DNA of 64,000 bases from an uncultured Chlamydiae bacterium (GTDB lineage Bacteria > Chlamydiota > Chlamydiia > Chlamydiales > SM23-39), in NCBI GenBank assembly GCA_963730605.1, contig CAVSSM010000007.1:32001-96000 (forward strand), in the 5' to 3' direction. Positions 280 through 24,046 of this stretch are shown here, piece by piece. Position 1 is the stretch's first letter, and each line of letters opens with the position of its first letter. The position numbers were made by a program, and so were the translations under genes. The notes beneath the pieces were generated by a model, which was not told where the DNA came from, searched no databases, and saw only the letters and a program-made list of their open reading frames with translations.

Positions 280-1341
280 ATGGCATCGATCAAACAACGC
301 AAAACGAAAGACGGTAAAACTCGCTACTACGTACAGGTGAGACTGAAAGGGCAAGATCATCAGTGCGCCAGCTTTGAAAGAATCACGGATGCAAAAAAAT
401 GGATTCAAAATATGGAGTCAGACATTCGATCTGGGCGCCATTTCAAAACGGCAGAGTCCAAGAAGCATTCTCTTGGCGAGATGATCGACAGGTACATGGA
501 AAACGTTCTTCCCCTAAAGGAAAAGTGCCTCAAGCGGCAGGGGGCGCAACTCCTCTGGTGGAAAGAGCAACTGGGGAATAAATTGCTTGCGGATATCACT
601 CCTGGGTTGATTGGTGAGTTCAGGGACAAGCTTCTGAAAGAAACTACCGTACGAAAGAAGCTCCGAGCCCCTGCCACAGTCGTTAGATATTTAGCGGCTC
701 TGAGCCACGCTTTTTCTATTTGCGTGGATGAATGGGGCTGGTTGGATGATTCTCCGATGAGAAAAGTGACAAAGCCTAAAGAGCCTCGGGGGCGTGTTCG
801 TTACCTTTCGACAGAGGAAAGAATGAGTTTGCTCAATGCTTGTAAAGAGAGTTCGAATAAATATCTTTACCCCATTGTGGTCATCGCATTGTCAACAGGG
901 ATGAGATTGTCCGAGATCATGGGCCTATGCTGGTCCGATATCGACTTCGAAAAGGGAAGAATTGTTCTCGAACAGCAAAAAAACGGTGATCGATCTACGA
1001 TTCCTGTTGCCGGATTGGCATTGCAGCTTCTAAAAGAATATAGCCAACGTCGATCAATCGCCAGTTGGCTACTCTTCCCTAGCAAAGAAAATCCCAATAA
1101 GCCAATCGATATACGCTTCCCCTGGGAAAAGGCTTTGAAACTCTCAGGTGTTAAAAATTTTTCATTTCACTGCCTGAGGCACTCGGCGGCTTCTTATCTC
1201 GCGATGAATGGGTGCAGTCTTATTGAAATCCAAAAAATCCTCCGACACAAGGCTATTTCTCAAACAGTCCGATATTCCCACCTGTCAGATGATCACATGG
1301 GAGAAGCTATGGCACGCATGAACGAAAAGATTTTTGGATAA
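280..1341 (+). CDS. int: Tyrosine recombinase / phage integrase
   Basis: Catalytic motifs TGMRLSE, HCLRH and LRHK...RY. Confidence 0.95.
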   Translation: MASIKQRKTKDGKTRYYVQVRLKGQDHQCASFERITDAKKWIQNMESDIRSGRHFKTAESKKHSLGEMIDRYMENVLPLKEKCLKRQGAQLLWWKEQLGNKLLADITPGLIGEFRDKLLKETTVRKKLRAPATVVRYLAALSHAFSICVDEWGWLDDSPMRKVTKPKEPRGRVRYLSTEERMSLLNACKESSNKYLYPIVVIALSTGMRLSEIMGLCWSDIDFEKGRIVLEQQKNGDRSTIPVAGLALQLLKEYSQRRSIASWLLFPSKENPNKPIDIRFPWEKALKLSGVKNFSFHCLRHSAASYLAMNGCSLIEIQKILRHKAISQTVRYSHLSDDHMGEAMARMNEKIFG

Positions 1342-2308
1342 CCGATTATGAAATCCGTGATGTCGAAGTTTTTTGTAGAGAAGCAATATGTCCATGATGG
1401 CGGGCTGTTATTGAAATTTTCTGAAGAAGAAATGAGGCAATGGGAAGAGGCGCTTTTACAAGATCGTCTAACTGTTGATGATTATAATATTCTATTACCG
1501 CTTTGGTGTTGGGAATTGGGATTCATTCCATTCATTCTAAATGGCTTAAAAGTATTTAAGATTTCTCTTGGAGACTGCGAGGGGGATGAACCAAATCTTC
1601 CCCCTTCCTCCAATCGCGTTATTCCCGTTTTTCTGAAAGCATGGGAGGCTATCCAACAAGGAAATTTGTTGGTCGAAAAAAGTAATAGATCAGTTCAGAT
1701 ATCCATTTCTGAGGCAATTCATCGACCTCGAAGTGTTGTCTCTAATAAATTAATAAATGAATTTTGTAATAATGCAGGCGATTTTTGCACGGAAATTAAA
1801 TCTTCAAAAGTAATTGAGTGGGCTATTTTAAATAATATTCAGATGGATAAGACGTTGTTGACCTTGCTGTCCCTATACCAGGACCCTCCTATAGAGGAAT
1901 TGTGTGAGGAGACTATAGGCAATCGCACCTATCGGAAAAAAATAATTAAAGAGTCGAAAGTAACAAATCCAGAAAAATATGAAGTAGAATATCTAGCTGC
2001 GGCTCAAATGCTTTGGTCTCAATACAAAAGAAGGAATAAATCACAAATTGCCAGCAACCTGTTAATGCGAGAATTTGGCCCTCCAGGCGGATATAGCAAA
2101 GAGGGTGGCAATATCCTAAAGAAACTGAGTATCATTGATCCTTTTGAGCAAAAAAAAGGGCGAGGACGACGACCAAAACCAGAAGAGAAAGAATTCGCTC
2201 TGCTTCCAATCCCAGGAATTGTCATTCAGGAAGATGGCAATAGGAAAATTGATTTAAAAAGATCAAAAGTTGCATTTTTTGCATTTATTCAGATGCTTAA
2301 AAAAATTA

Positions 2309-3425
2309 TACCGCTCGTGATTCAAAATTTTGATGCGTGAAAATTTCCCTTGACTGCACAATGGCTGCGTGAATTTTTTAACCGACTCAGAACGACAGGA
2401 ACTCAAACTCCGGCACCGGGGGGACCGCGATGGGCGGGTGCGTGATCGAATAAAGGCTGTTCTCCTCTATGATGAGGGGTGGGCTCCCAAAGACATTGCC
2501 AGGGTTCTGTTGATTTCTGACGAAGCAGTTCGTCACCATGTTGACGCATACAAAACGTCGAAAAAATTGCGCCCCGAAAGCGGCGGCTCCGAGGAGAAAC
2601 TATCCCAAACGCAGTCCGAGCAACTTGAGGCTCATCTTCAAGAACACACGTACCTTTACGTCAAGGATATCGTCGCATATGTAGAAGTGACTTTCGGTAT
2701 TGTCTATACCGTCCACGGATTGAGGGATTGGCTGCGAAGACACGGATTTTCCTACAAAAAACCCGCCGTTGTACCCGGGAAAGCCAACAAAGAGCAGCAA
2801 CAAAAGTGGCTCGCCGGATACGAGAAACTCAAGGCAGAACTCCTCGAGGATGAGACTATCTGCTTTATTGACGGCGTTCATCCAACGCACAATGTGCAGC
2901 CTGCTTATGGGTGGATCAAAAAAGGCGTGCGTAAAGAGATCCCAGCAAACACAGGACGTGCCAGGCTCAATCTTTCAGGGAGCATCGATGTCATCACCCA
3001 CAGTGTGGTAATCCAAGAAGACGAGACTTTAAACGCAGAATCGATAATCCGGTTTTTCCAAAAGATCGAAGAATTTTACCCGAGTAAACGAAAGATCCAT
3101 GTATTTTGCGATAATGCACCGTACTATCGGAATAGGGCTGTGAGGCAGTACCTAGAAACGGCAAAAGTTTGTTTGCACTTTTTACCGCCCTATAGCCCCA
3201 ATCTAAACCCGATAGAACGACTGTGGAAATGGATGAAGGAGCGGGTAGTTTACAATACTTATTACGAGTACTTTGAAGACTTTAGAGGAGCGATTCTTGG
3301 TTTTTTCGCTGTATTGGCGACTGTGACCGCGGAGTCAACTTTAGGCCGGGATTTAAGAAGCCGGGTTAGGGATAAATTTAGTCCCTTTCAGGCACCTGCT
3401 GCCAAGTTTTGAATTTCCTTGGGTA
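2309..3425 (+). mobile_element. IS630-family insertion sequence
   Basis: Imperfect TIRs TACC...ATTCAAAA, TA duplication at 2307-2308 and 3426-3427. Confidence 0.92.
2369..3412 (+). CDS. IS630-family transposase
   Basis: HTH N-terminus; DDE motifs FIDG, DNAPY and LPPYSPNLNPIERLW. Confidence 0.95.
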   Translation: MNFLTDSERQELKLRHRGDRDGRVRDRIKAVLLYDEGWAPKDIARVLLISDEAVRHHVDAYKTSKKLRPESGGSEEKLSQTQSEQLEAHLQEHTYLYVKDIVAYVEVTFGIVYTVHGLRDWLRRHGFSYKKPAVVPGKANKEQQQKWLAGYEKLKAELLEDETICFIDGVHPTHNVQPAYGWIKKGVRKEIPANTGRARLNLSGSIDVITHSVVIQEDETLNAESIIRFFQKIEEFYPSKRKIHVFCDNAPYYRNRAVRQYLETAKVCLHFLPPYSPNLNPIERLWKWMKERVVYNTYYEYFEDFRGAILGFFAVLATVTAESTLGRDLRSRVRDKFSPFQAPAAKF

Positions 3426-3755
3426 TAAGACGGAAATTCAAGCCGATGAAGTGTGGGATCACCAAGTCATTAAATTTTACTTCTCCGATCTTCACCCTCT
3501 CGTCCAAGACATATTCAAAGAGTGGTTGAACGATTTAGTCGTTTTGAAAGAGCCATTCAAATCTAAGCGAACTATCGTGGAAACAAATCGAAGCTAACAG
3601 GGCTTGTTTTGGCTGGATTCCGGGGCCTTTGTTAATTCCTATTTTCAGATTTTACCGTTCTAAAATCAGGAATTTTTGCGATATCACCAGTGCCTTACAC
3701 TGGTGTTGTTGAGTAATGCACAATATTCCAAAAATTTTTAGGAGGGACATGGCTA

Positions 3756-4016
3756 ATGCAAGAGATGAATGATCAACAAAAAGCACTATCCTATAGAGAA
3801 CCGGCGAAATACCTGACTTGTGCTCAGTGGATTGCAAAGTATGGGTTTCCAACGATAGGCGGATTGAGATGGTGGATTTTTAAGGCTAAGAATGACCCTG
3901 CTTTGAGAAAGATTTTCATTCGAGTTCGAAGGCGCGTGTTACTGAAGGAAGATGAAGTTCTTCGATATCTGGAAGAGATGAATGAGAAGGATTTGGCCGG
4001 AGGGAGGAAAAAATGA
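3756..4016 (+). CDS. Small DNA-binding protein (excisionase/AlpA-like)
   Basis: 86 aa, basic, winged-HTH-like pattern, directly upstream of the primase-helicase. Confidence 0.55.
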   Translation: MQEMNDQQKALSYREPAKYLTCAQWIAKYGFPTIGGLRWWIFKAKNDPALRKIFIRVRRRVLLKEDEVLRYLEEMNEKDLAGGRKK

Positions 4017-6106
4017 CAGCCTCCCCAAAAATCAAACCCACTCCTGACAGAGTGGGTTTAGACAAAACTAGCGAAGTTTTTCCAGCTCATCATGTCGCAT
4101 CACCCATTTGTTTGTCATCATTTTTAGATTCAACTCATTGTAATGAGACAATCAGAATTGAAGGACAGGTAGAAGACACAAATCGCATTGAATCTCTCAT
4201 TACCGATTCCAAAGGATCTGAATGGGTTTCAGAAGCCCCTCCAATAGGTGAGTCGAGACGCAAAATCGAGTTCTTGATTATTCCGAACACTCTGACCGCA
4301 AAGAATCAGTTAGAGGCTCTCGTTAAGACCGAGAAAGAGCGCCTTTCCCTCATTTGGCGAGGAGCAAATAAATTACCAAACGGTAAGTGGCCGAAATCCG
4401 ATACCCCGTATTACAGCGTTTCAAAGGAAAAAAGGGACGATTTATTGCGCACTTTCAAGAAGTTCGAAATTCCACAGGAAGAGATCGAAATCCGTGAAAT
4501 TCCTGTCCCTCCTCCCATCCCAAAACATCTGAAGAAAGCGCAGAAGATACAGGCTCTTGGCGACCAATATCACGAGGCGCTCAAGGTGATTGAAACGAAG
4601 GAGGCGGAGGAGCTGGCAGACACCAAACAGCGGTTCGTCGAAGAAGACATTTCCGCCACTGATTATGCGAGCCGGACAAAAGAAATTCGGGACAGGTACG
4701 CGAAGGAAAAAGAATTTCTCTCTTGCAACGCGAACCGAAACTACCGGGCCGCCGACGTTATTCATGATGATGGGGAAGGGACAAGCAGCGGCGACCAGAC
4801 GGAAGAAGAAGTTGTTAGAGAGTTCAACTCACGATTCTCTATCTTAGAAAACCCTTTCTGCATTCTTGAGTATCACGAGGATACTTTTTCACTCCAAAAA
4901 AAACGGGACTTTAGAGACCGTTACCAGAACCAAAAAATTCAAATCGAGGAAAAAAAATCGAAATGCAAGGCAGATGTTTGGCTTGATTCACTGATCAGGA
5001 ATACGTTTTTTAAAATGGAGTTTCGTCCCGACAAACTTCCAAGAGAATATTATGAGGGAGAGAGAAAATATCTCAACCTCTGGAATGGATTCGGCATAAC
5101 ACCAAAACAGGGGTGCTGCGAGAAAATCAAACGGCACATGCTCGAGGTTATCTGTGGCGGCGTCAAGCGCGATTTCGACTACCTCTGGAAACTGGAAAGC
5201 ACATGGGTTCAGCACCCAGAGAGAAGAACTACCGTTCCGGTTCTGACATCTCCCCATGGCGCAGGAAAAGGGCGGCACGTAGACATGTTCGCGAAAATTT
5301 TCGGAAATGCCTTTTATGAGACAAGCTGTCCTGACCATGTGTTTGGCAACTTTAACGCGGCGGTCGCAAACAAGGTTCTAGTTCACCTGGACGACGCTCT
5401 CTTCGGCGGGGACAAACGGCTCATGGGACGCCTCAAGACCTTTTCCACAGCGGATCAAATCACCATTGAATACAAGGGGAGAGATCCGATTTTAGTACGG
5501 AACCCACGAAAGCTGATAATCTCTTCAAACGAAACCTTCGCAATTCCTATAGAGCCAACAGAAAGAAGATATCTTTTTCTGACAGTAGCCTCACATCGCG
5601 TCGGAGACAAGACGTATTTCGTTGAACTCACACACGAGATTGAAAACGGCGGAGTGGAAGGTTTTCTTTACGAGTTGCTTCAGACAGACTTGACCGAGTT
5701 TAATCCGAGATTTTTGCCGGAAGGCTCCCAAGGCGGTTTTGAGAACAAAATCGAATCCTCAAGCACATTCACGCAATATGTATTCCAGGCACTAAAAGCC
5801 GGAACGTTCTTTTTGCAAGACACCGCCGGACAATGGAAATCTGAGATTCGCACAGATTTGCTTTACGAAAGTGGATACCTTGAGTTTTGCAACCGCCGGA
5901 AAATCCACAGACCTGTTACGGACGAAATGGGAGGGAAAGAGCTCGGATCAATCCTCAAAGGATCAGAATTTAAGCGCGTGCGCCGTCGCGCTGAGGGAAC
6001 TCGATTCTATTCGTACGAGTTCCCGAACCTCGCGTCTTGCCAATCCGCCTTCGCCAAGCACTTCAACACGCATAAAGACATAATTTTCCCAGACGATGAA
6101 GACTAA
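4013..6106 (+). CDS. Primase-associated SF3-type helicase (DUF5906/D5-like replication protein)
   Basis: Walker A SPHGAGKG, FGNFN, Walker B VHLDD, IEYKG, ISSN and ERRY motifs; YLNLWNGF. Confidence 0.8.
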   Translation: MTASPKIKPTPDRVGLDKTSEVFPAHHVASPICLSSFLDSTHCNETIRIEGQVEDTNRIESLITDSKGSEWVSEAPPIGESRRKIEFLIIPNTLTAKNQLEALVKTEKERLSLIWRGANKLPNGKWPKSDTPYYSVSKEKRDDLLRTFKKFEIPQEEIEIREIPVPPPIPKHLKKAQKIQALGDQYHEALKVIETKEAEELADTKQRFVEEDISATDYASRTKEIRDRYAKEKEFLSCNANRNYRAADVIHDDGEGTSSGDQTEEEVVREFNSRFSILENPFCILEYHEDTFSLQKKRDFRDRYQNQKIQIEEKKSKCKADVWLDSLIRNTFFKMEFRPDKLPREYYEGERKYLNLWNGFGITPKQGCCEKIKRHMLEVICGGVKRDFDYLWKLESTWVQHPERRTTVPVLTSPHGAGKGRHVDMFAKIFGNAFYETSCPDHVFGNFNAAVANKVLVHLDDALFGGDKRLMGRLKTFSTADQITIEYKGRDPILVRNPRKLIISSNETFAIPIEPTERRYLFLTVASHRVGDKTYFVELTHEIENGGVEGFLYELLQTDLTEFNPRFLPEGSQGGFENKIESSSTFTQYVFQALKAGTFFLQDTAGQWKSEIRTDLLYESGYLEFCNRRKIHRPVTDEMGGKELGSILKGSEFKRVRRRAEGTRFYSYEFPNLASCQSAFAKHFNTHKDIIFPDDED

Positions 6107-6119
6107 CCACGATCAGGCT

Positions 6120-6403
6120 GTCCCTAGCTACCTAGGGACAGCAGTTTTTGCTAGGGACACTCAAGTTACTAAGCCTATAAGTCTAGCCCTAGTGTCCCTA
6201 GTGTCCCAAGCTAAAACACACGTTCTTGCGTGCATGAAAGATGTGGTGGTGATGGAGTGGGCAAAAAACACAAAGTTTCTATTGCCTCGCCTAAAAGAAT
6301 ATTCATTTTTCCTAGGGACGGGGGGGACACTAGGGACAGAAATTGATAATCAATTGGTTATGAAACAATTTGCTAGGGACAGAGCTAGGGACATGCTAGG
6401 GAC
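6120..6403. repeat. Iteron cluster, putative replication origin
   Basis: CTAGGGAC forward at 6132, 6151, 6312, 6330, 6373, 6385 and 6396, reverse at 6120 and 6194; AT-rich palindrome AATTGATAATCAATT at 6341-6355. Confidence 0.8.
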
Positions 6404-6433
6404 AGCATTGAAATTTGCTCAAGCGAGGCTATC

Positions 6434-8050
6434 ATGATCCACCTCCGCCTCCGCGATTATCAATTCCAATGCCTCGAGGCGATCGCCTCCAATCGCGCCG
6501 CCGGGATCATGCGCCAAATCATCAACTTGCCAACAGCCGCAGGCAAGACAGTGATTTTCGCCTCGCTCATCGCCCAGGCCATCCAGCAAGATCCAACAAT
6601 CCGAGTCCTGATCCTGGCATTTTCGTGCGACCTTCTTAGCCAGGCCCGTGATAAGATCCACATGATTAACTCAAGCCTCGATGTTGGGTTCGTCGACGCC
6701 AGCCATAAGGAATTCGACAGGCAAATCGTGGTCTCCTCCATCCAAAGCGCCCGAATCCCCGGAAACTTGGAGCGATTGCAATCCCAAGGGTTCACGATCT
6801 GCATTGCGGACGAATGCCATCACTTCGCCAGCGATAGCGCACGCCTCGTACTCCGCGAGCTCGGATTCGACGCCGAATGCACTGCACAAGGCCGCTTGTT
6901 AGTCGGATTCTCGGCCACGGCCGCCAGAAACGACGATCGGGGACTCGGAGAGGTGTTCGAGCGTATCGTTTACAGCAAATCAATCAGCGAATTGATTGAC
7001 GGCGGGTATCTTGTGCGGCCGTCCGGCGTCAAGGCAATGACCGATTTGGATCTTGGAAAGGTCCTGTTGGATCAAAGCGGGGACTACTCCGCTGCCAGCC
7101 TGTCTGACGTCATGGACACACCAGAGATGCTAGACCTCGTTGTTCGCTCATTTGAAGAAAAAGGAATGGGCAGGAAGCGGACGATAGCCTTCTGTACTTC
7201 GATTGCCCATTCCGAGCATTTAGCGGCCTGTTTTAGGCGCTCTGGCGTCAACGCCTGCGCGATTCATAGCAACCTGCCAAACAACGAAAGAAAAGCCATC
7301 CTAAAGCGTTTTAGAGACGGCGAGCTGGAAGTTCTGACGAATCCGCTTTTGCTTACGGAAGGGTTCGATTGCCCTGAGATCGACTGCGTCATCGTATCGA
7401 GGCCGACGAAGTCGGTTGGACTGTATACGCAGATGGTTGGGCGTGGGCTTCGTTTGTTCCCCGGCAAGGACGACTGCCTCATCATTGATTTTTGCGATAA
7501 GGCGCACAGTCTTTGCAGCGTGGCAATCCTGACCGGAGACGTTGACCAAGAAAAAATTGAAATCGTCCGGGAAAAACAAATTGAGGAAACTATTGGCAAA
7601 TTGCCTCCTACCCTCAATCAAAAGCTAAAATCCGCTCTTATGGAATTCGACCCAATCGGGAAATCGTTCACCTGGGCGAAAGAATTCGACGGAAGCTATT
7701 CCATGAAAGGCGCCGGGGAAATTTTCCTTAAAATAATTCCTGCTGAGAATTCGAAATACACAGTCATCGTAGAAGGAATTTCCGGTTCGCAAACCCTCTC
7801 GGATGGACTCGATTTTGAATGGGCGTTCAGCACAGCCGAGGATTTTGCCAGGGAAAATAAATCGCGGTTCACGATCTCCGACTTAAACGCGTCTTGGAGA
7901 GATTTGCCGATCAGCGAAAAACAAATGGCCGTGTTCCGATCTTCCGGATTTCGATCTGGGATCGGTGACTTAACGAGGGGCCAGGCATCGCTGATTATCG
8001 GAAGTGGAGTGTTAAAAAAAAGAACTGGAAAGAATCGGAAAAATTGGTAA
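6434..8050 (+). CDS. DEAD/DEAH-box SF2 helicase (ResIII/IRC3-like)
   Basis: LRDYQ, PTAAGKT, DECHH, SAT, TEGFD and QMVGRGLR motifs. Confidence 0.92.
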   Translation: MIHLRLRDYQFQCLEAIASNRAAGIMRQIINLPTAAGKTVIFASLIAQAIQQDPTIRVLILAFSCDLLSQARDKIHMINSSLDVGFVDASHKEFDRQIVVSSIQSARIPGNLERLQSQGFTICIADECHHFASDSARLVLRELGFDAECTAQGRLLVGFSATAARNDDRGLGEVFERIVYSKSISELIDGGYLVRPSGVKAMTDLDLGKVLLDQSGDYSAASLSDVMDTPEMLDLVVRSFEEKGMGRKRTIAFCTSIAHSEHLAACFRRSGVNACAIHSNLPNNERKAILKRFRDGELEVLTNPLLLTEGFDCPEIDCVIVSRPTKSVGLYTQMVGRGLRLFPGKDDCLIIDFCDKAHSLCSVAILTGDVDQEKIEIVREKQIEETIGKLPPTLNQKLKSALMEFDPIGKSFTWAKEFDGSYSMKGAGEIFLKIIPAENSKYTVIVEGISGSQTLSDGLDFEWAFSTAEDFARENKSRFTISDLNASWRDLPISEKQMAVFRSSGFRSGIGDLTRGQASLIIGSGVLKKRTGKNRKNW

Positions 8051-8058
8051 TCGGTTTT

Positions 8059-8112: not shown

Positions 8113-8262
8113 ATGCCACAAGAATTAGAAGAACAAAAAATCCATAGCCAGCAACCGGATTTTCTCAAAAACCTCGCGCCAGAAGAATGGCGCAGCATTC
8201 TCAATACAATCGACAATACAAGCGAACTTGCGGGAGAACTCTATGCCAGCACGTCGAACTAA
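8113..8262 (+). CDS. 49-aa hypothetical peptide (MPQELEEQKIH...) overlapping the terS start
   Basis: Open frame after the promoter; below the ORF-track length cutoff. Confidence 0.4.
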   Translation: MPQELEEQKIHSQQPDFLKNLAPEEWRSILNTIDNTSELAGELYASTSN

Positions 8263-8668
8263 ACGCCAACCGCATGAAGATCCTGGCGGCCGACCTCAAG
8301 TTTATACCGACACCTGGATCGAAGAAGAGGCGGATCGCCTCCTTGCCTGGATGGAATTGCCTGAGTCTATATTTCTTAAGTCATTCGCAGTGGAGAGAAA
8401 ATATCATCCGAATCGCCTGCAAGAATTCGCTGACAAAAACCAGAAGTTTTCGGGAGTTTTAGAATTAGCTAAGTCTTGGCAAGAATCAAGACTTATTACC
8501 TATTCCCTTTTTAATAAGATCAATTGCGGGATGACTAAGTTTGTTTTGGCGAATCATCACGGTTATTGTGAAAAGACCCAAGTTTCAGGAGACGTGTCCA
8601 ATCCGCTCGCTTTGGCCATGACCAGGGCCGACGGCTCCTCTAAGGCTCTCGTCAATGATGGCAAATGA
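8243..8668 (+). CDS. terS: Terminase small subunit (P22 gp3-like)
   Basis: GGRP..YT motif, KFVLANHHGY.EK, directly upstream of and overlapping terL. Confidence 0.75.
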   Translation: MPARRTKRQPHEDPGGRPQVYTDTWIEEEADRLLAWMELPESIFLKSFAVERKYHPNRLQEFADKNQKFSGVLELAKSWQESRLITYSLFNKINCGMTKFVLANHHGYCEKTQVSGDVSNPLALAMTRADGSSKALVNDGK

Positions 8669-10208: not shown

Positions 10209-10843
10209 AGTCTTAAATTTACAGCTCTATTGTCATGTACTTGGCGATCGTGCTTTTGGCGGCGGGAAAACTTGGGTAGTCTTAGTCTTGAAAACCAACT
10301 CTGGTGCAAGAAAACCAATCCGGCGATGGAAGTGATAAGTTGTCTGAGTTCCTCAAACTTCACCAGGTTGGGTTCCCTTGAGACGTACGAGCCGGTAGCC
10401 AAATCTTCCAGTAGGTCAATGGAAGCTCTGTAAGCTCGCATTTCATTATTCCTTACGGCGCGCATTCTGGCCTCATGAGCCTTAATAGCCGACTCTAACC
10501 ATTTCAGATGGTCTGCGATTCCGGGTGCCGTTCCGTGCAGCACCATTAACCCTGTTCGCAACTTTTTCACGGAGGCAAATACGTTCTTTTGGAATTCAAA
10601 CTGTTCCCCATCCGGTTTGCTTGCCTTGAAACGCCAAAAAAGGGAATTTATAGACTCCTCTGCAACATCCAATAATTCAAGCACTTTCCAAGAGTTTTCG
10701 TTAGCATTTTCTATGCGCTTCTGACGTAGAAAACGCTGCCAAAAGAAAGGCAGCCCGGTTAGCACCAGCAAAACGCCAATAATCGCGGCGATGTTGGCGC
10801 CAATAGAAAATATTTCGCTCCAAGTCATCGAGGTTTCCATCAT
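10202..10843 (-). CDS. Hypothetical protein with N-terminal membrane anchor
   Basis: 213-aa ORF with a hydrophobic N-terminus, coupled to the HTH gene. Confidence 0.6.
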   Translation of the reverse strand: MMETSMTWSEIFSIGANIAAIIGVLLVLTGLPFFWQRFLRQKRIENANENSWKVLELLDVAEESINSLFWRFKASKPDGEQFEFQKNVFASVKKLRTGLMVLHGTAPGIADHLKWLESAIKAHEARMRAVRNNEMRAYRASIDLLEDLATGSYVSREPNLVKFEELRQLITSIAGLVFLHQSWFSRLRLPKFSRRQKHDRQVHDNRAVNLRLQ

Positions 10844-11037
10844 GGGCGCTTGTTTTGCTTGCTTTCACTTAGCCTTTTGCGGATCCAATTTTCTATCGCC
10901 GTCCGCTCGAATTTCCAGTCACGACCCATCTTAAATGCCCGGATCTCTCCGGATTTCACTAATTTATAGAGGGAAAGCCGCTTCGTCTTCAATAGGGCGC
11001 ACGCCTCTTTGGTCGTTAGGATTTCCATTTCAAACAT
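10840..11037 (-). CDS. Excisionase-family HTH DNA-binding protein
   Basis: ILTTKEACALLK...LYKLVKSGEIRAFKMGRDWKF. Confidence 0.85.
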   Translation of the reverse strand: MFEMEILTTKEACALLKTKRLSLYKLVKSGEIRAFKMGRDWKFERTAIENWIRKRLSESKQNKRP

Positions 11038-11164
11038 CCAGTATAAGCTCATTCATACATTAAAAAACTAATTCGTACAAGACGAAAATTCGCAGCCTCT
11101 CTATGATTTCATGACGAAAACATCACGTCTTCGAAAATACGAAAGCCAACAACGTGAGATCAAG

Positions 11165-11578: not shown

Positions 11579-11653
11579 ATGGCCTCAATTCATCAAAACT
11601 CGGCCGGCTGTAGGGCAAGATTGCGGCCTTCCTACTGATTTTCCTAGAAGGCA

Positions 11654-12389: not shown

Positions 12390-12409
12390 TCCTATTCCTT
12401 ATATTCTAT

Positions 12410-12438
12410 ATTATGCCACTACTAGCATAATTTGTCAA
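12410..12438 (-). promoter_or_regulatory. TA promoter with overlapping operator palindrome
   Basis: Minus strand TTGACA-17-CATAAT; inverted repeat TTATGC-N8-GCATAA at 12411-12430. Confidence 0.65.
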
Positions 12439-12488
12439 TGCTTTGTTGTAAAATTCATGTCGTTTTAATTGGCATAACTGGCTTGTTG

Positions 12489-16900: not shown

Positions 16901-18664
16901 AAGCTTGAGGACTTTGGGATTAAGCTCGCTGAAATCATGCCTGATTTCTTCTTGCGCTTCGGTCCAGGCACTTATCCTGCCGGGGAAAACATCATCACCG
17001 TATTCCATGAAGGCAAGCCGAGCTACTTTGAAGTTTCCCCAGAGATTTACCAGATGTGGACGAAGGGGATCGCTCCTTACACCGCCGACATCATCACCAA
17101 AATCCTCCGCATTCCAGCCAGGGCATTGCGCGCCGGTGCCATTCTCAACCCAAAATTCATGATGAAAAACATCGTGCGCGATACATGGGGCGGCTTTCTC
17201 TTCACCAAGTATGGGAAGAACATCAAGGACCCCCCTGCGCTGTTCCTGGACACTCTTTACGCCCCGCTTGCTCAATTGGGCATCGCAGCCAAACAAGCCA
17301 AGCTCTACGTCGAATGGATGAAATCGGGCGGCGGCATGTCTACCATGCAGTCGATGGATCGGGAAGCGATTATCAAGAAGCTCAAAGAAGTGCGAGACGG
17401 GTTGCAACCGCACCAAGTGATCCGGTGGCTCAGAAAGGTCGCCGAAATCTCGGAAGAGGCTAATCGGCTTGCTGAGTTCGGCCGCGCTTTGAATGTAGAG
17501 GGAGAGACGCGCTTGGGTAAAGAAATCGCCGCTTTCGCTTCCCGAGACCTGAGCATTGATTTCGCTAAGATGGGTCTGCAAACCAAGGCGTTAAACCAGA
17601 TCATCCCTTTCTGGAATGCAACTGTACAAGGCGGAGACAAGCTCATCAGAACGCTCGCCAGCGACCAGGATCGAGCCGAATTCATTGCCAGGGCAGTTGG
17701 GTTCATCCTCATCCCATCGCTAATCCTCGCCTGGATGAACCAGGATGATGAACGGGTCAAAGAATTCTACGAAGAAGAGAAAGACTTCAACTTCATCTCC
17801 TTCATCGGCGATACTGCTATCAAGATCCCCGTCCCCTTCGAAACCGGAGTCCTCGTCCACGGCCTGACGCAGCGTATGTATAACCACTTCATCAAGAAAG
17901 ATCCCCATGCCTTCGAAGGGTTCATAGGCAGCATTGCCTCTGCCATGCTCCCGAACTTCGTGCCCGCTTTCGCTAATCCGTTCGTAGAAGCGGCGGCGAA
18001 CCGGAATTTCTTTACCGGCGCGCCTATCATTCCTCGGGCTAAAGAAGGGCTAGTAGCCAAGTACCAATACAAGAATAACAGCTCGGCGACCGCCAGGCTT
18101 CTTGGCCGCGCCATGACCTACATGATGGGCCAGGACACGCGATCGAAAGCCGCCTCTCCTGCCGTCATCGACCACTTCATAAATTCGTGGGGAGCGGGCC
18201 TTGGACGGCTTGTCGTCTCTCTTGCCGATGCTGGATTGGAAGCCGCTGGACTGAGCGATAAGATCCCAGGGCCGGAGAAGACCATTACAGAAAGACTGGG
18301 TCTCGATGCGTTCGTTTCCCGGTACCCAAGAGCGTCTGCTAGGAACATCGAGAAGTTCTACGACATGTATGCCGATGCCACAGCTCGGCGCCGCTCCATT
18401 AAACAGGCTGAGAAGGTCGAGCTTGAGGAGCCGGAAGCGATCGAAGAGGCTTATGAGCGGGTCGAATCGCTTTACGACTACCCGACCTTACAGCGAGCCT
18501 ACAAGGCCATGCAGAAGAACCAGCGGGCGATCAACGAGATTTGGCAGAACCCCGATATCGACGAGAAGACCAAGAGGACCATGATCGACGATCTTTACTT
18601 GCAGCAAATCCAGTTCGCCAAAGAAGCCGTTGAGGATATCGAGAAATATCGCCTTGCTGGCTAA
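13952..18664 (+). CDS. Large polyvalent/ejection-type protein with zincin motif and LPD38-like C-terminus
   Basis: N-terminal FFxD repeats, coiled coil, HEIGH...EGFAE, C-terminal DFAKMG...IIPFWNA...KIPVPFE. Confidence 0.7.
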   Translation: MATAPDFFSDLSQKPEANKFFSDIPQQAPVVKPKTSPTMQMAPVNFFADLEGQPSLQDQQAKPPGFLDRLGQAFAYQMQSGGPAGAPSLSPDQAKKVAAEAGTQIAIGEAFAPLKILATASKYAPGFLRSLVNISQAGTTGAAIPAVESLTEKGELPSKGELLKHGAIWAGIDAAIQLTHAGAEFGVIVNKLKAETGLPTREVLNRLWQGAKKHYGWKHPPTDPETGAAIIAPEQIEAMADLAVKEPETIIEATVKEKGPSPIPEPKAAQEPKVRDFENIDDVRAMLSDTDKKIKALEALGPRANANDERLLNTLRKTRPGLVEVLKELETRGKPSYLEPEPEKSVTTEAPKPVSGYVRKPEPKTVPEKIAHLSQKVKESEAHVENMREAIDQQKQLIEDLKKRESQLSPISYLHPTKEQRDTELRKAKERGEIKASIMGAKDNLEQKRDGLSSEKDYLAQLKAGLRDLKEKKEASRYEVPLGRGGALEKKVRIRPAEKELAEKQPSIMGKKQAIARSEILNLFRKAFTDPIRLGKFGQRASGIHKLWSRVTRLLKDNDIETAAHEIGHNLHTTLYGGDAKTHVEQRENINAALRPYLDELKPLALYEPFGMEGFAEFTRLYVTNPDTALKLAPKFYAKFDADLEAQYPELRNALLEARDYYEQYLQGTPESRIRAQTDYGDDSSKLDNLVDWVKSSLDMDKLKTNFLDDVFPAKRLVAEAFGISLSEVENLKDPRNLYRSLRVLKGAIGRADVFLTHETFDAKTLKRKGRGLRQILRKLKTPEEYKEFNDYLIARRVMEKGKQNIETGINYGDAIVTERNLAPKYKKLAVLLDHYNDALLTYARDGGVLSNEQYAAIKKANMMYVPFQRVIEKPAGVAAIGGRLQAGKPIKRMKGSTRDIIAPIESVIKNTYAIIVNAEKNLSGQALAELAKMRGIGRLVEYVPAPIELKAKISREEALKQMEALLKQSGWITEGGGGLGEEKLEDFGIKLAEIMPDFFLRFGPGTYPAGENIITVFHEGKPSYFEVSPEIYQMWTKGIAPYTADIITKILRIPARALRAGAILNPKFMMKNIVRDTWGGFLFTKYGKNIKDPPALFLDTLYAPLAQLGIAAKQAKLYVEWMKSGGGMSTMQSMDREAIIKKLKEVRDGLQPHQVIRWLRKVAEISEEANRLAEFGRALNVEGETRLGKEIAAFASRDLSIDFAKMGLQTKALNQIIPFWNATVQGGDKLIRTLASDQDRAEFIARAVGFILIPSLILAWMNQDDERVKEFYEEEKDFNFISFIGDTAIKIPVPFETGVLVHGLTQRMYNHFIKKDPHAFEGFIGSIASAMLPNFVPAFANPFVEAAANRNFFTGAPIIPRAKEGLVAKYQYKNNSSATARLLGRAMTYMMGQDTRSKAASPAVIDHFINSWGAGLGRLVVSLADAGLEAAGLSDKIPGPEKTITERLGLDAFVSRYPRASARNIEKFYDMYADATARRRSIKQAEKVELEEPEAIEEAYERVESLYDYPTLQRAYKAMQKNQRAINEIWQNPDIDEKTKRTMIDDLYLQQIQFAKEAVEDIEKYRLAG

Positions 18665-18696: not shown

Positions 18697-19395
18697 TCAA
18701 GAGCTGGGTTTTAAATGTAGAGAGAGTCTTTGATCAATCTGGTTGCGGAGCGCTTTGACGAGTTCCTCCGCAAACCAATCAGGTCGATTATAGTGAGGGC
18801 CAATGCTCGCCAGGCAGATGGTGGTTGCCTGGGAAGGTGGAACATCACAACTGCTTGCCAAAAATCGTCCCGCAAAGCGCAACAGTTCTGTCACGGCTGC
18901 GGCTTTATTTGCATCGCTCAAATTTGATAGCTTGTATCCAGAGATGAAATGAGCCGCTAAAGCTCGTGTGTCTTCGAGCTCTGCCTTATAATCGCTCATG
19001 TATTTAGCTGGATCGGATGTGGTCATCAAACCTTGAGGCCTCCAGGAGGCATCAACGTCATTTTTAAGCTGATCAACTCCGTAACAAAGATCCGCGTCAA
19101 TTTGTTTGAGAGCTTGTTCTGCGCGTTCATAATGTTCATCTGTCCATCCAGAGGGGAGATCGATAGCTTTGTCAAGAGAGTATTGGACGTCTTGGGACGT
19201 TATTGACTGCTGTTTAAATGTCGACACCTGAGATTGCCATTTACGGAAGATATTGTCGGCATCACGTTTGAGCTGTTCTTTTTTGCGGAAACGTACCTGT
19301 TTTTCTACATTTGATATCTGGGTCATAACGAATTTTCTCCATGGTTTACTAACTTTTGAAGAAATACCATAACCAAGAAAGCTCGGAATTGTCAA
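18697..19395 (-). CDS. Hypothetical protein (true start may be ~19326)
   Basis: Long ORF; no recognised motif. Confidence 0.55.
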   Translation of the reverse strand: MTIPSFLGYGISSKVSKPWRKFVMTQISNVEKQVRFRKKEQLKRDADNIFRKWQSQVSTFKQQSITSQDVQYSLDKAIDLPSGWTDEHYERAEQALKQIDADLCYGVDQLKNDVDASWRPQGLMTTSDPAKYMSDYKAELEDTRALAAHFISGYKLSNLSDANKAAAVTELLRFAGRFLASSCDVPPSQATTICLASIGPHYNRPDWFAEELVKALRNQIDQRLSLHLKPSS

Positions 19396-19398
19396 CCT

Positions 19399-19611
19399 TT
19401 ACGTAAGAGAGAAGAAGAGTATCGCATCTACAAGCAGCCGTAGTCCAATCGTCACCAAACAAAGGCCTGTCACTCTTCTCCATGAGAAAAAAGGCATAAG
19501 CTTTTTGAAATCAAACATGTGTATCCCGCTGCACAAGCATAATGATCCTAAAAATATCCTCACCAGCAAGAGGATTATCATTCCTAAAGGACTGAGCATT
19601 ATTTCTTTCAT
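19399..19611 (-). CDS. Small two-TM membrane protein
   Basis: 70 aa with two hydrophobic segments. Confidence 0.55.
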   Translation of the reverse strand: MKEIMLSPLGMIILLLVRIFLGSLCLCSGIHMFDFKKLMPFFSWRRVTGLCLVTIGLRLLVDAILFFSLT

Positions 19612-19619
19612 TGAACCGC

Positions 19620-19949
19620 CTAGCTTGATTTTTTCTTGTTTTTGAATACGTCAATCACCCCACAACCAACGTAGCACAGGAGTCTCAGGAGCTCTGCGTC
19701 GACTTTATCGCAGGCATTCATGCATTTAATGAAACCATCCCGCTGCCAATCAGTCATGCCAGGAACAGGTTTGCCCATGCTTGGCATGGATTTGCCTTCT
19801 ACAGCAGGAACATTAGATAGCGCATACAAAGCAACGAGCGGCACTGATAGTTTTGAAATAGCGCTGGCTACTTGAAGCAATGCGGGCGCTGCTAAGGGCC
19901 CAAATACTCCGGGGCGAACTCCGTATTGAGAGATTGCTAAGGAACTCAT
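19620..19949 (-). CDS. Small Cys-containing, probably exported protein
   Basis: RBS GAGG; hydrophobic leader ending ALSNVPAVEG; two CxxxC motifs. Confidence 0.6.
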   Translation of the reverse strand: MSSLAISQYGVRPGVFGPLAAPALLQVASAISKLSVPLVALYALSNVPAVEGKSMPSMGKPVPGMTDWQRDGFIKCMNACDKVDAELLRLLCYVGCGVIDVFKNKKKSS

Positions 19950-20119
19950 GAGATCCTCAAGGTTGAAGGGTTTTAGAAAAAGGGAAGACACTAAGACACA
20001 AAAAATTTAGACGCAAGCCTAAATAAATAGTTTACAAACGTAGTATTTTTTAATTTAGTTTGAAAAATTCTGCATAGTTCTTATTGTTGATGAATTTTCA
20101 AAAGCCAAGGAGGTTTTTT

Positions 20120-20698
20120 ATGGCACTTCAAGCAGTAGGGACGAGCAACTTTCTTTCTGCATCCCTCGGAAATAACCCAATCCAAACACTCGGAATGCTC
20201 AGCATTACAATGCTGGCTGTAAACACTTTGTCAAATTTGCCAATGGCAAAAGCAGATGAAGGCGGATTCCCTTGGAGAGAATATTGCGAGGTTCAGTGCA
20301 CGCCAATTACTGGAGAAAAAACTGTCACACATCAAATCTGCGTCGAGACATGTCTAGTGGGAAAAGAAATGATTAAAACCACAACAGAACAGGCATTGAA
20401 GAATGGAAAATGGGAAGTTGTAAAACAACTCGGGAAAGTGGTGACGGCGATAAAACCAATTGGAGATGGCATAGATTGCTACTCAATTTGTAATAATCCA
20501 CTTTCAGCTGGTAGTAGGATGGCTGGAGATCTATTCATGGCTGGCTATAGTCTATGGAGCAAAAATTTACCTGATGCTGGTAGTTACGGTAAAAGTGCTG
20601 CTGCTAAAGCAGGGTGTGTTGCTCTTCTAATTACGCCAGCCGGAATTCCTGGTTGCCTGGCGTGTTGCGCAGGAACAAAGTACATCGGGGTTAATTAA
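20120..20698 (+). CDS. Cys-rich, probably exported protein
   Basis: RBS AAGGAGG; leader ending TLSNLPMAKA; several CxxxC motifs. Confidence 0.65.
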   Translation: MALQAVGTSNFLSASLGNNPIQTLGMLSITMLAVNTLSNLPMAKADEGGFPWREYCEVQCTPITGEKTVTHQICVETCLVGKEMIKTTTEQALKNGKWEVVKQLGKVVTAIKPIGDGIDCYSICNNPLSAGSRMAGDLFMAGYSLWSKNLPDAGSYGKSAAAKAGCVALLITPAGIPGCLACCAGTKYIGVN

Positions 20699-20715
20699 AA
20701 AAGGAAATGTAATTT

Positions 20716-21000
20716 ATGAAAACAGCCAATTCCATTCAGATAAGAGAACAAACGCACCACTCTAGTAATCAGATTAGTAAATTTTTAGAAAAACACCCCA
20801 TTACAAGAAAGCTTATTCTTTGTGGGTCAATTATAATTACTGGTGGATTTATCATAGCAAAACAGATCTCGTCGAGAACATTCACACCGAGCTTTACACT
20901 TCAAGAAGCAGTTGCTTTGACAGTTATGAATATCTTCTCACAGGAAATGTTGCGTTACGATCGCTCATTGGAAAACAAAAAAATCGAGCGCATCTCCTAA
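20716..21000 (+). CDS. Small membrane protein
   Basis: 94 aa with a central hydrophobic segment. Confidence 0.55.
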   Translation: MKTANSIQIREQTHHSSNQISKFLEKHPITRKLILCGSIIITGGFIIAKQISSRTFTPSFTLQEAVALTVMNIFSQEMLRYDRSLENKKIERIS

Positions 21001-21462
21001 TGGGGCGCTTTTCTCTTAACGAACTGCAAGCCCAGAAAATCGATCGACTAGCCTGACGGCTACCCTTCATATGCCTCGACTTGCGATAATAGATTCTAGA
21101 CCCAACCGACGAGGCGACCGAAGAGCGGTATCATGACGCGATAGATGCGATTAGGGGGAAGGATTAGCCTTGCGACGAACGAGCAGGAATGAATCGTTTT
21201 TCTGTGGGAGCCGGAAGCTGATGAGGCTCCAATGAAGTATTTCAATCATAACCTGCTATAAAATCATTATCTCATCCCTACTCCGGGCTTCTGCTTATAG
21301 GGCGCTAGGGCGAGGTTTTTCGAAGAATGCTTCTCTAATGCAAGTAAAATTTCTGATATAAATAGTTATTAATTAAACCATTCTTTTATTTCTGATTTGT
21401 GTATTATCTGCTCTGATTTTATATAAGTTGTTAGAAACTTTTCAAAACAAAATTGGAGATTT

Positions 21463-22708
21463 ATGCAAGCAGTATCAAAAGTAGAAATCTTAGATGTTCA
21501 ACCAAACATTCTCACGCAACCGATCAAAGCGACAGACGTTAATTCAACGGTAGGGAACATCAATGGCGGTTCCCAAAAAGCGACATTCCGCAAATTCGCT
21601 GCGGAACAGGCTCTTCAGCCTCAAGTTCAATTTGAGCAAAGCTTAACGGATCGTTTTAATTCAGGTTTGTTACAGAACGATATCCTAGTTAAGAAGATTA
21701 ACCCACATACCATGATCCATAAAGCAATCTTGGAAAATTCCCCTGTAGTAATCAGGAACCTATCCTCCAATTCTTCACGATCCCTTTACGGCACGCTTTT
21801 GGGCGCTTTTCGCGCCTCCGCCCTCGTAAAGATCACCGTCCCGATATTTACTTCGGGCGGTCGACGACGAAAAATCGCCTCAAAATCGACCATAAATGAA
21901 TCATTAAGAATTGGAGGATAGGTTCAGGTTTCTCCTAGCTCAAGGCGTGAGTGTCGATTATCCGGATTCTGATGGGATGTCACCACTTACTGTTGCACTA
22001 CTGAATCGATGCGACTATGCAGTTGATGTGTTGTTGGAGCATGGTGCCAATGTCAATCCAAAGATTCAGTGGAATGGAATGACTCTGCTGGAGATCGCAT
22101 TTTTAATGAAAGACCATAAATCAGTTCTCGCATTGCTGAAGCATGGTGCTGATATTAAGATAAATGAGATTGAACAAAGTGCTTTAGTTCAGGCAATCTG
22201 TTTAGCTCATGATTTCAAAACTAGATCTGAATGGGAAAAGATTGTTGAATTATTGATAGAAAAAGGATCAGATATTCATTCAAACAATTCCACTAGCAGT
22301 CCATTTTACGAATCCATTTTTCTTGCCCAACAAGGAGATTTCTTTGTTCTTGAACTCTTGCTTCGCAAGGGGGCCGATGTAAATATGAAGGTAGGTGGGG
22401 GTATTCCTTCTCTTTTTCTAGCTCTCAAATGGGGATCTCTAAATCCAAATTGGTGTATCCCTTTAATTGAATTGTTTATTGAAAATGGGGTTGATGTGAA
22501 TCAAGAGCATCAGAGCATGGGTACGCTTCTCCATTTAGCGATATCGGATTCTCGGTTTGATTTAGTGAAATTATTTATTGAAAATGGTGCCGATTTAAAT
22601 AAAAAATCGAAGGTGCAGGGTGAAATTCAATCTCCTTTAACCTTGGCTCTTAAACTACATGAGGTAGAAATCGTGCAGTACCTCGTGCAACATGGCGCAA
22701 AAGCCTAA
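21463..22708 (+). pseudogene. Ankyrin-repeat protein split by a 170-bp MITE (357 aa when reconstructed)
   Basis: Removing 21756-21927 restores VIRFLLAQG, as in the adjacent paralog. Confidence 0.88.
21756..21925. mobile_element. 170-bp MITE
   Basis: 20-bp perfect TIR GAACCTATCCTCCAATTCTT; AG duplicated on both sides. Confidence 0.88.
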
Positions 22709-22774
22709 TCAAGCAAGCGGGGCCGTTTCGTGCGTTTCCGCTTCTATTTATTTTTAAAATAAAAATGGAGACTT

Positions 22775-23731
22775 ATGCAAACGCAAAGAATAGAGAAAAT
22801 AGATGTTCGAGATAACATTGTTCAACCACTCTTTTTGGTTCAGGGAGAAAAAGCCGCTGCCATTAAAATCGACGGTTCCCCAAAAGCTGCATTCCGCAAA
22901 TTTGCTGCTGAAAATACTCCTCAGCCCAAAGCTCAATTTGAGCAGAGCTTAACGGATCGGTTCAATTCGGGTTCCTTACAAGAAGACGTTCGCTTAAAGA
23001 AGATCAATCCTCATACCCTGATTCACAAAGCGATTTTGGAGAATAATCCAGCCGTAATACGTTTCCTTTTGGCCCAAGGGGTAAGCGTCGATTATCCAGA
23101 TCAAAATGGAATGTCGCCATTGACGATCGCGATCTTGAATTGTTGCGATTATGCTGTGGAAATATTGCTTAAAAATGGCGCCAACACGAACCCAAAGGTT
23201 AAATGGAATGACATGGGTTTGCTGGAAACAGCCATATTCATGAAAGATCACAAAACTGCGAAATCGCTGATTGATCATGGTGTTAATTTGAATGAGAAAG
23301 CTGGCAATAAAGGTTCGCTTGAATTAGCGATCCACACAAGCCAAACATCTCAAGAGTATATTGAAATTGCTCTTTTAATGATCGAAAAGGGAGCAAATAT
23401 TCATTCAAACGAACCAGAAAACTGTCCTTTATTTGAAACCATCCTTGCTTATAATGGAAATGTAGCAATTCTAAATTCTTTAATTAAAAAAGGTGTCGAT
23501 TTAAATATGGAATTCAAGAAAAGCGCTAATGGCGGACAAACCGCCCTCACTGTAGCCATTGCAATAGGTGGAAGTTTGGATGTTATTGATCTTCTTGTTC
23601 AATCAGGTGCAGATGTAAACAGAAAAACACCATACCTTGGCATGGGTAATAAATCTCCTCTGCAATTAGCTATGCAAACACAGCAACCAGAAATCGTTCA
23701 ATATCTCTTGCAACACGGCGCAAAAGCCTAA
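22775..23731 (+). CDS. Ankyrin-repeat protein
   Basis: Repeated G.SPL..A...L+..GA.VN units; tandem paralog of 21463-22708. Confidence 0.9.
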   Translation: MQTQRIEKIDVRDNIVQPLFLVQGEKAAAIKIDGSPKAAFRKFAAENTPQPKAQFEQSLTDRFNSGSLQEDVRLKKINPHTLIHKAILENNPAVIRFLLAQGVSVDYPDQNGMSPLTIAILNCCDYAVEILLKNGANTNPKVKWNDMGLLETAIFMKDHKTAKSLIDHGVNLNEKAGNKGSLELAIHTSQTSQEYIEIALLMIEKGANIHSNEPENCPLFETILAYNGNVAILNSLIKKGVDLNMEFKKSANGGQTALTVAIAIGGSLDVIDLLVQSGADVNRKTPYLGMGNKSPLQLAMQTQQPEIVQYLLQHGAKA

Positions 23732-23741
23732 CCTTCACTAT

Positions 23742-23775
23742 AAAAGGGCGGCTTCAGAACCTGCCGCTCCCTTTT
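23742..23775 (+). terminator. Intrinsic terminator after the ankyrin gene
   Basis: AAAAGGGCGGC...GCCGCTCCCTTTT hairpin. Confidence 0.55.
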
Positions 23776-24002
23776 CGATGGCACAATTTTGACACACTGG
23801 CTTGCAAAATCTTACGGTTTCTCCGGGTATGCTATGAAAAAGGCTTCCTTTCTCTGCCTTGAGCAATTCCCCAAAATTTCCCCACTGGCTCACAAAAGTG
23901 ACCAATAATCAACAATTTCCATCAACTGTGAAAAAGTCCTTAACAATTTAATTCTATTGTTGTTAAGCTTTGATCATCGTTGTGGAAAGTGGAAATGAAT
24001 GA

Positions 24003-24046
24003 GACTGTTAATCCATTGGTCGCAAGTTCGAATCTTGCACCCGGAG
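24003..24046 (+). other. tRNA-Asn(GTT) 3' fragment, attR of island 1
   Basis: GACTGTTAATC anticodon loop, T-arm GCAAG-TTCGAAT-CTTGC, acceptor 3' strand CCCGGAG; no 5' half. Confidence 0.85.

Follow-up and report, generated by a model that had tools for sequence, protein, structure and literature searches.

How can a mobile element spread if it carries the motor that fills phage heads with DNA, together with proteins predicted to be ejected with that DNA, and has no recognisable gene for the head itself? This question is raised by an island at a tRNA-Asn gene of an uncultured Chlamydiae bacterium (GenBank assembly GCA_963730605.1). We have analysed a window of 64,000 nucleotides of this genome (positions 32,001 to 96,000 of contig CAVSSM010000007.1, or G000:C7:32001-96000, G000 being the island's own genome); window coordinates are used throughout unless C7 is given. 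The reading that we prefer, and hold to be slightly more probable than its contrary, is that this tRNA-integrated, capsid-less island is a satellite that would take over heads and tails from short-tailed, P22-like phages whose hosts are likely chlamydial.

The tRNA-Asn(GTT) gene is located directly to the left of the window (C7:31899-31970), and for this reason ARAGORN found no tRNA inside it. Since the 50 bp at the 3' end of this gene have an exact second copy further right (attL and attR, the attachment sites of Table 1), the element measures 24,076 bp. A preliminary description of this DNA had proposed a tRNA-Asn island of about 24 kb with an integrase, a primase, iterons, a superfamily 2 (SF2) helicase, terS-terL and a pair of genes for proteins of 229 and 1570 aa, all of which is borne out by the att repeat and by profile matches. 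It had also called the gene set intact, which is right as to its presence but not as to its condition: an IS630 insertion sequence and a 170-bp repeat split two genes, residue 373 of the terminase large subunit (TerL) is a Phe, and the match of the helix-turn-helix (HTH) gene is weak. This copy of the island is possibly partly disabled. Promoter and terminator scans gave results at chance level.

The most conspicuous trait of the island is what lies between terL and the 229-aa gene. The portal-capsid-tail block of a complete P22-like prophage is replaced there by some 3 kb of accessory DNA (an HTH gene, a lipoprotein, a toxin-antitoxin pair and a resolvase), as had been described and as the profile scans confirmed; in the relatives of the island the corresponding gap spans ~0.07-1.8 kb. 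No portal, capsid or tail match was found in the element with Pfam and PHROGs (28 open reading frames, ORFs) or NCBIfam (23 ORFs), and no profile match to a capsid-morphogenesis gene was found among its ORFs. Portal and capsid profiles that we have built from related phages, and which do detect the phages G406-G410, had no match anywhere in the island's own genome, and the same was true for PF04860, for which the positive control was detected. There is no unexplained ORF of portal size in the element, and the only one of capsid size is the gene that follows the integrase. The model of its protein is mostly helical and poor (predicted local distance difference test, pLDDT, 48.5), with no fold match at a Z of at least 5 (best Z 4.4); the HK97 fold was not seen in it but may have escaped a model of such low confidence, and a word search among 5.8 billion proteins gave no further relative. 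In none of these profile collections did the capsid or portal appear that the hypothetical ORFs might have concealed.

The same organisation was found in other genomes of the phylum. TerL matches were present in 63 of 401 of them, the island's own genome included. We have compared 28 places with a near-full-length TerL in 24 other genomes, about nine of them on contigs too short to judge: a portal or capsid was nearby at one (G014, a phage), none was in the stretch examined at the other 27, and G014 was also the only one of the 24 genomes with a phrog_156 portal anywhere. Twelve loci are att-bounded, 10-39 kb long (the two largest are compound) and placed at tRNA-Met, -Phe, -Ser, -Tyr, -Lys, -Thr or -Leu genes; this count leaves out G250, where the repeat bounds a terL-free neighbour, a tRNA-Thr/tRNA-Thr match in G194 and a 14-bp match in G228. 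By gene clusters, all 12 have a primase-type gene, and the integrase and TerS are each present in 11/12. A PHROGs scan of 185 further ORFs from related loci (four ORFs were left out) gave no capsid or tail; two matches to a 'portal' family fall on NUDIX domains, and the cargo recognised includes methyltransferases, nucleases, helicases, transporters and transposases. Four IMG/VR records with terminal repeats, that is closed circles of 19.1, 19.5, 23.0 and 30.2 kb, each encode an integrase, a primase, a helicase, TerS, TerL and the ejection-type pair and lack both portal and capsid. In one of them a 46-bp perfect match to the tRNA-Phe 3' end of the island's own genome adjoins the integrase. The capsid-less order terS-terL-(cargo)-229-type-LPD38 (LPD38 being the domain that marks the 1570-aa protein) is therefore recurrent, found again in the four circles and in chromosomal loci. 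A one-off deletion in a single prophage, which had been raised as the alternative, is not borne out, as 12 other att-bounded islands and the four circles likewise have TerL without portal or capsid. The islands are patchy (7/103 genomes of the family) and spread across many families of the phylum and many tRNA sites. We consider it likely that they make up a real, recurrent and apparently undescribed satellite-like family. Two arrangements among the relatives deserve separate mention: tandem integrase-primase islands at one tRNA-Met, of which one alone has terS-terL (G147 and G238, loci L122-L124 and L142-L143), and a block of vWA, PP2C phosphatase and kinase genes as cargo directly after terL (L112:10542-14449, in G277).

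The terminase family is one that the islands share with phages. The small subunit (TerS) of the window is 35-50% identical to island and phage homologues (among the best 30 listed), and a phrog_2 search of the island's own genome gave just two weak extra matches. In an alignment of 43 TerLs the ATPase and nuclease motifs of the window protein are kept except at residue 373, which is His in 42/42 of the others; its remaining motifs agree with those of portal-bearing phages, the sequence KARQLGIST presumably being a deviant Walker A. The ratio of nonsynonymous to synonymous substitutions (dN/dS), a comparison that had been suggested for this element, is ~0.04-0.09 for TerL in those five of 11 island pairs whose dS is unsaturated (finite) and ~0.08 for TerS in three close pairs; between the TerLs of the window and G375 pN is 0.16 and pS 0.76. 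Judged by these values, TerL has been under purifying selection in the island pairs. A TerL tree of 110 rows places the islands together with 14 portal-bearing phage rows in one supported group of 47, inside which 25 rows have no portal-bearing member among them (support 90), and a smaller tree of 36 rows has a nine-row island-only clade (support 97). The left end of the islands, with the order integrase-unknown-HTH-primase, was absent from 81 portal-bearing loci, many of them just +/-10-kb windows, and this gene order therefore argues for a PICI-like backbone (PICI, phage-inducible chromosomal island) that captured phage modules rather than for phages that lost their middle.

The second module in common with phages is the 229/1570-aa pair. 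The LPD38 domain (PF18857) of the 1570-aa protein is matched with 132.9 bits against a cut-off of 27 (E 2e-38), and the residues of its HExxH..E motif (H565/E566/H569/E613/E617) are invariant in 43/43 aligned sequences. Single-sequence scans with this protein gave no relative in viral or genome contigs and two metagenome loci; the alignment search with its family gave eight genome loci and 72 viral loci, and 146 relatives were found among 8000 scored candidates. The LPD38 protein is matched by 376 of 50,697 GenBank phage records, including Stx, Pelagibacter and Vibrio phages, and its gene is present in 4/400 genomes of the phylum (G005 left out) and 2/103 of the family; the LPD38 profile matched no solved phage structure. 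PMC5512222, in the portion available, assigns LPD38 specifically to polyvalent proteins of the phage type, and the LPD38-bearing gp47 of phage phi24B is reported to be in the virion, is not in the shell model and has been proposed as an ejection protein (10.64898/2026.04.10.717836, partial text). The 229-aa family has 18 aligned members from islands and podoviruses; the model is helical (pLDDT 77.5), Foldseek gave no match for it at E<=0.001 in viral or PDB libraries, and a weak Atlas match to PF16928 (Inj_translocase, 0.86) is taken as a lead and nothing else. Both proteins are predicted to be DNA-ejection proteins. The six best-scoring 1570-aa loci are all capsid-less (the four IMG/VR records, G323 and a Parachlamydiales genome that has TerS and lacks TerL). 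A candidate generalisation, that the closest LPD38 relatives are all capsid-less, was rejected: over the C-terminal 1100 aa the nearest is the complete phage G407 (70%), and the pair is accordingly common to islands and phages. The island of genome G095 carries another pair; the large gene of that pair and a phage contig in G252 are 58% identical. Distant LPD38 genes of Proteobacteria (L174, Methylocella; L175, Sideroxydans; L177, Ottowia) have a primase or integrase gene as neighbour; the stretch examined held no capsid cluster, and L174 has TerS and a tail-lysozyme protein upstream of LPD38. Islands with ejection genes may be widespread.

Which phages could provide the missing head and tail? 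The candidate helpers are P22-like podoviruses of 35-44 kb, with a phrog_156 portal and a phrog_1357 capsid, in which the same pair closes the tail block, with up to 70% identity to that of the window. A tyrosine integrase was present in none of ten such phage records, seven of which are at least 90% complete, and the terminase of three of these phages (G406, G407 and G409) does not match that of the window. Portals of the phrog_156 family were found in 18 of 401 genomes of the phylum; ten loci, that of G014 among them, were mapped, and most are stand-alone phage contigs, which could be mis-binned. A P22-like relative is integrated in a 137-kb contig of G285, a genome of the same taxonomic order, where the flanking genes match the island's own genome. 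This prophage (G285:C1 ~38-78 kb, loci L278, L279 and L281) has a portal, a capsid, a tail block and an island-type terS; ~3 kb of small ORFs divide its terL, also of island type, into two parts, and its ejection slot holds 405-aa and 833-aa genes matching nothing compared. A 35.3-kb circular phage contig with a 137-bp terminal repeat and a phrog_156 portal (G139:C101, L282-L283) is also binned in a genome of the phylum.

The host of the window island looks chlamydial from its proteins and is taken here as a member of the Chlamydiota. The histone-like Hc1 family is above cut-off in the island's own genome, in four genomes of the same order and in a Parachlamydiales genome, and is absent from 5/5 non-chlamydial comparison genomes, although one control genome, Bacteroides, also matches. 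The uL14 of the island's own genome is 74% identical to that of the Parachlamydiales genome, against 49-66% for the five others. OmcB (PF03504) was not found, in a search where the control was undetected too. According to the preliminary description, a chlamydial host would imply a tailed helper in a group best known for Microviridae. The chlamydial look of the host and the P22-like phages in the phylum sample agree with such a helper, but its novelty has to be reduced, as tailed-phage genes are already in print: the accessible part of PMC7846284 describes a putative prophage on a chlamydial plasmid with terminase and tail-tip genes. The isolated phages of environmental chlamydiae are microviruses, according to the portion available of PMC5010888.

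The scheme that we propose starts from what was directly observed (the gene set, the att ends, the recurrence, the circular relatives, and a terminase family and a pair in common with phages); all of its dynamic steps are inferred. When a helper infects, the integrase and an excisionase would excise the island, and the primase and helicase would copy it from the iteron origin into concatemers. Its own TerS would select its own DNA and its own TerL would dock on the helper portal, filling helper proheads by the headful. Owning both subunits would remove the need to match the helper TerL, and the terminase of three candidate helpers does belong to another family. The 229-aa and 1570-aa proteins would be loaded into the helper heads and would deliver or protect the DNA on entry, and the island would finally integrate, together with its cargo, at a tRNA gene in the recipient cell. 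The 19-kb circles have roughly half the length of a helper genome, so that two copies in tandem would fit a head of normal size; elements of 23, 24 and 30 kb fit less neatly.

A number of observations weigh against this scheme. Monophyly of the islands, and with it a single origin of their TerL, is rejected in the 36-row tree (23 island and 13 phage rows, four label changes; approximately unbiased, AU, test, p 0.031), which means that the terminase came from this phage group, or was swapped with it, on more than one occasion. The LPD38 genes of the islands interleave with two complete phages, and the nearest relative of the window gene is phage G407; this and the non-monophyly fit repeated capture and fit repeated decay as well. 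The ejection-type pair occurs in just two of the 12 att-bounded relatives (G228 and G095), though in all four circles, and is for this reason best seen as an optional module: by gene content the core of the family is int-primase-terS-terL, and the pair appears to be an add-on. The satellite reading of the preliminary description gains from the recurrent order and from the failure to find a hidden capsid, and is qualified by the scarcity of the pair among att-bounded relatives and its presence in complete phages. No capsid-size-changing gene was recognised in the element, and the copy analysed here has its second gene interrupted by IS630 and its TerL changed by His373Phe. Broken copies exist elsewhere (TerL and LPD38 are both split in G323, G088 retains a remnant of TerL, and L171 lacks TerL). 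The circles could be intracellular forms, and the selection measured between distant copies may date from time spent in phages. No helper was found in the island's own genome, which is 83% complete, with the portal and capsid profiles and PF04860; a search there with two phage proteins was also negative, with no positive control, as was PF12236, with its control also undetected. Near-identical island and chromosome DNA was found in four soil runs from two studies, where island and flanking chromosome are at similar low depth (patchy contigs). Read mapping for an excised attP circle, a check that had been suggested, gave no clear excision joint for this copy in any of the four; the loose ends at 24003 and 24052 in run X2 are most simply read as the integrated attL junction.

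The alternative that survives best, unlikely as we judge it, is a terminase-only satellite in which the 229/1570-aa pair is a passenger from a helper phage and has no part in the transfer of the island. Absence of the pair from 10 of the 12 att-bounded relatives and the interleaving of island and phage LPD38 genes are in line with it, and so is a resolvase that directly precedes the pair in the window, in G401, in G403 and in G323. A mere passenger is harder to reconcile with a pair that, in the four circles and in G228, follows the terminase genes undamaged and in the same orientation, with island copies 55-77% identical to each other and saturated at synonymous sites, and with at least two separate captures (the G095 type and the LPD38 type) into the same slot.

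Somewhat more doubtful is an integrative element that would use captured terminase and ejection genes mainly to sabotage podoviruses, through mis-packaging and defective particles, and would spread rarely or by other means. TerL has retained both its ATPase and nuclease motifs, closed circles exist and the islands are found in many families of the phylum at many tRNA sites, all of which speaks for transfer rather than sabotage, even if methyltransferases, nucleases and toxin-antitoxin genes are part of the relatives' cargo, no gene for capsid remodelling came to light and this copy gave no sign of excision.

A third explanation, that prophages repeatedly and independently lost their structural block and are decaying, draws on the non-monophyly of the island TerL, the broken copies, the phage-type RecET and repressor genes of the G253 island and the integrated relative with a full structural block in G285. 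It is already weakened, and we regard it as improbable: the integrase-unknown-HTH-primase left end is found in 0/81 portal-bearing loci (many partial) and a tyrosine integrase in 0/10 phages with the same pair, the nine-member island-only TerL clade (support 97) has to be accounted for together with TerL dN/dS below 0.1, and the closed circles keep the same reduced gene set. Headful-type terminases can begin packaging in situ and attR is followed by a his operon and further metabolic genes, so that the terminase might serve host gene transfer (lateral-transduction or gene-transfer-agent-like packaging past att) with island transfer as a by-product, a very improbable reading for islands that keep an integrase and their own replicon, are patchy within the family and form closed circles.

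Table 1. Features of the tRNA-Asn island (window coordinates unless C7 is given).
Feature	Position	Strand	Basis or remarks
attL, 50 bp, tRNA-Asn 3' end	C7:31927-31976		directly left of window
Tyrosine integrase	280..1341	+	PF00589, E 4e-33
Post-integrase gene, function unassigned	1348..3597	+	family alignment; divergent island family, split by IS630
IS630 insertion sequence	2307..3427	+	PF13358; transposase 2369-3412
Small HTH/excisionase-like gene	3756..4016	+	TIGR01764, E 0.011, weak
Primase/replicative NTPase (DUF5906)	4013..6106	+	PF19263; phrog_1156 primase, E 2e-24
Iteron cluster TAGGGAC, both orientations, putative replication origin	6100..6410		motif count
SF2 helicase	6434..8050	+	PF04851, PF00271, phrog_16
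TerS, terminase small subunit	8228..8668	+	PF16677 GP3_package, above cut-off
TerL, terminase large subunit, full length	8655..10208	+	phrog_2, E 5e-29
Variable cargo, terL-to-pair interval	10202..13046		213-aa ORF, excisionase-type HTH, lipoprotein, RelE-like toxin/HTH antitoxin, serine resolvase
Excisionase-type HTH	10843-11052		profile scans
Lipoprotein	11111-11578		NF047637
RelE-like/HTH toxin-antitoxin pair	11654-12389		profile scans
Serine resolvase	12489-13046		profile scans
229-aa helical protein, predicted ejection (pilot-type) protein	13263..13952	+	Gly/Ala-rich N-terminus
1570-aa phage polyvalent protein, predicted virion-packaged ejection protein	13952..18664	+	HExxH metallopeptidase motif and LPD38
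Right-end cargo	18697..23731		hypothetical ORFs and two ankyrin-repeat genes
attR, 50-bp tRNA-Asn 3'-end copy	24003..24052	+	exact repeat of C7:31927-31976

Some of these features can be followed beyond the window. The integrase is 65% identical to that of a related tRNA-Asn island in genome G088, and the small HTH gene (cluster c22) precedes the primase in several related islands. IS630 is a multicopy host element with 14 near-identical copies in the genome. The iteron cluster has nine TAGGGAC-type sites where 0.02 would be expected from the genome frequency and is likely the replication origin, judging by its motifs; the motif was not clustered in nine relatives checked. In the right-end cargo the first ankyrin gene is split by the 170-bp repeated element (21756-21926), which has inverted-repeat ends, resembles a miniature inverted-repeat transposable element and has many near-identical copies in the genome. 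Directly to the right of attR, 42-bp inverted repeats flank a transposase remnant (24209-25126), followed by a 161-aa ORF with homologues in the G147 islands. Further right are purH and then a histidine biosynthesis operon (hisG, D, C, F and A by NCBIfam; 26194-34664), unusual for chlamydiae, and an IS1634-family transposase region of raised read depth (34743-37000); contigs in two runs join 34884 to 36994, which represents a site without the element or another copy. An acetyltransferase-cupin fusion (47733-48695), 23 kb from the island, has weak, below-cut-off similarity to aminoglycoside acetyltransferase models.

Returning to the satellite reading, its wider form, a new class of satellite that owns the packaging motor and the ejection machinery, steals the empty head and tail, and parasitises uncharacterised P22-like podoviruses of obligate intracellular Chlamydiota, giving phage-driven gene exchange, stands in our estimate at an even balance. 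The islands would in that case be a vehicle by which genes for defence, transport and ankyrin proteins pass from one intracellular bacterium to another, and they point to candidate tailed phages of environmental chlamydiae. They also raise testable questions: can a foreign TerL work on a helper portal, and is it the ejection proteins, and not those of the shell, that determine which DNA gains entry to a cell? Such islands are likely to be missed by detection models built on a capsid or on at least four of the five PICI core components.

How does the island compare with known satellites? P4-like satellites have Psu, Sid and Delta and no terminase; the island has both terminase subunits and no match to Psu, Sid or Delta among its ORFs. 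PICIs, in the available part of their description (SatelliteFinder model, PMC10085698), typically have no other phage-like structural genes and a median length of 9.5 kb. The island is like them in its integrase at one end, primase-replicase (PF19263/phrog_1156) and TerS (PF16677) in conserved order, in its cargo after the terminase and in its att-bounded tRNA integration; a possible counterpart of their small AlpA/MerR/Stl-type regulator is the gene with the weak excisionase-type HTH match. Unlike them, it is larger and, where PICIs use the TerL of the helper, has a full-length TerL of its own and two virion-type proteins, the LPD38 protein among them. A capsid-morphogenesis gene, often missing in type B PICIs, was not recognised in it. 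As to helper-induced excision, replication and packaging, the circles of the relatives are suggestive, whereas this copy showed no excision joint. Capsid-forming PICIs (cf-PICIs), as far as the same text describes them, likewise combine a TerS and a TerL of their own with a left end of PICI type (PMC10085698), but the island lacks their capsid, portal and head-tail connector, has a terminase in common with P22-like podoviruses and adds the ejection-type pair.

Other parallels are more partial. The EPIP of Mycolicibacterium, by the accessible part of its report (PMC12822802), likewise carries a virion protein related to DNA delivery (a tape measure protein) and relies on a helper; it has a serine integrase, TerS only, head-tail and scaffold genes and a long-tailed helper, whereas the island has a tyrosine integrase, TerS and TerL and a podovirus ejection-type pair. 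VEIMEs (PMC9618062, available text) are integrative, with primase/helicase and in some cases TerS, and are packaged as concatemers in full-size heads, as the window island would be; by that description they have small subunits only and take TerL, capsid and tail from helpers, although their datasets may hold TerL-bearing elements. Archaeal SRCEs, which according to the portion seen may carry a packaging ATPase without a capsid (10.1101/2025.02.15.638363), are a loose parallel. PnaK_GI2 of Protochlamydia naegleriophila is, like the window island, tRNA-associated, with a putative TerL and cargo in 15 kb, and is described in the available text just as a genomic island, with no satellite reading, family or ejection genes there (PMC5010888). 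The LPD38 proteins of the phi24B gp47 type have, in the sources as available, the same metallopeptidase and LPD38 architecture, and in related phages the gene ends the virion block; they are described near phage virion genes (PMC5512222), whereas the window copy is in an element without shell genes. The literature searched, with most subscription papers and supplements outside its scope, contained no published capsid-less satellite with TerS, TerL and ejection proteins. Within the descriptions available, the combination of TerS, TerL and ejection-type proteins without a shell would fill an empty slot between PICIs, with TerS only, and cf-PICIs, with a head of their own.

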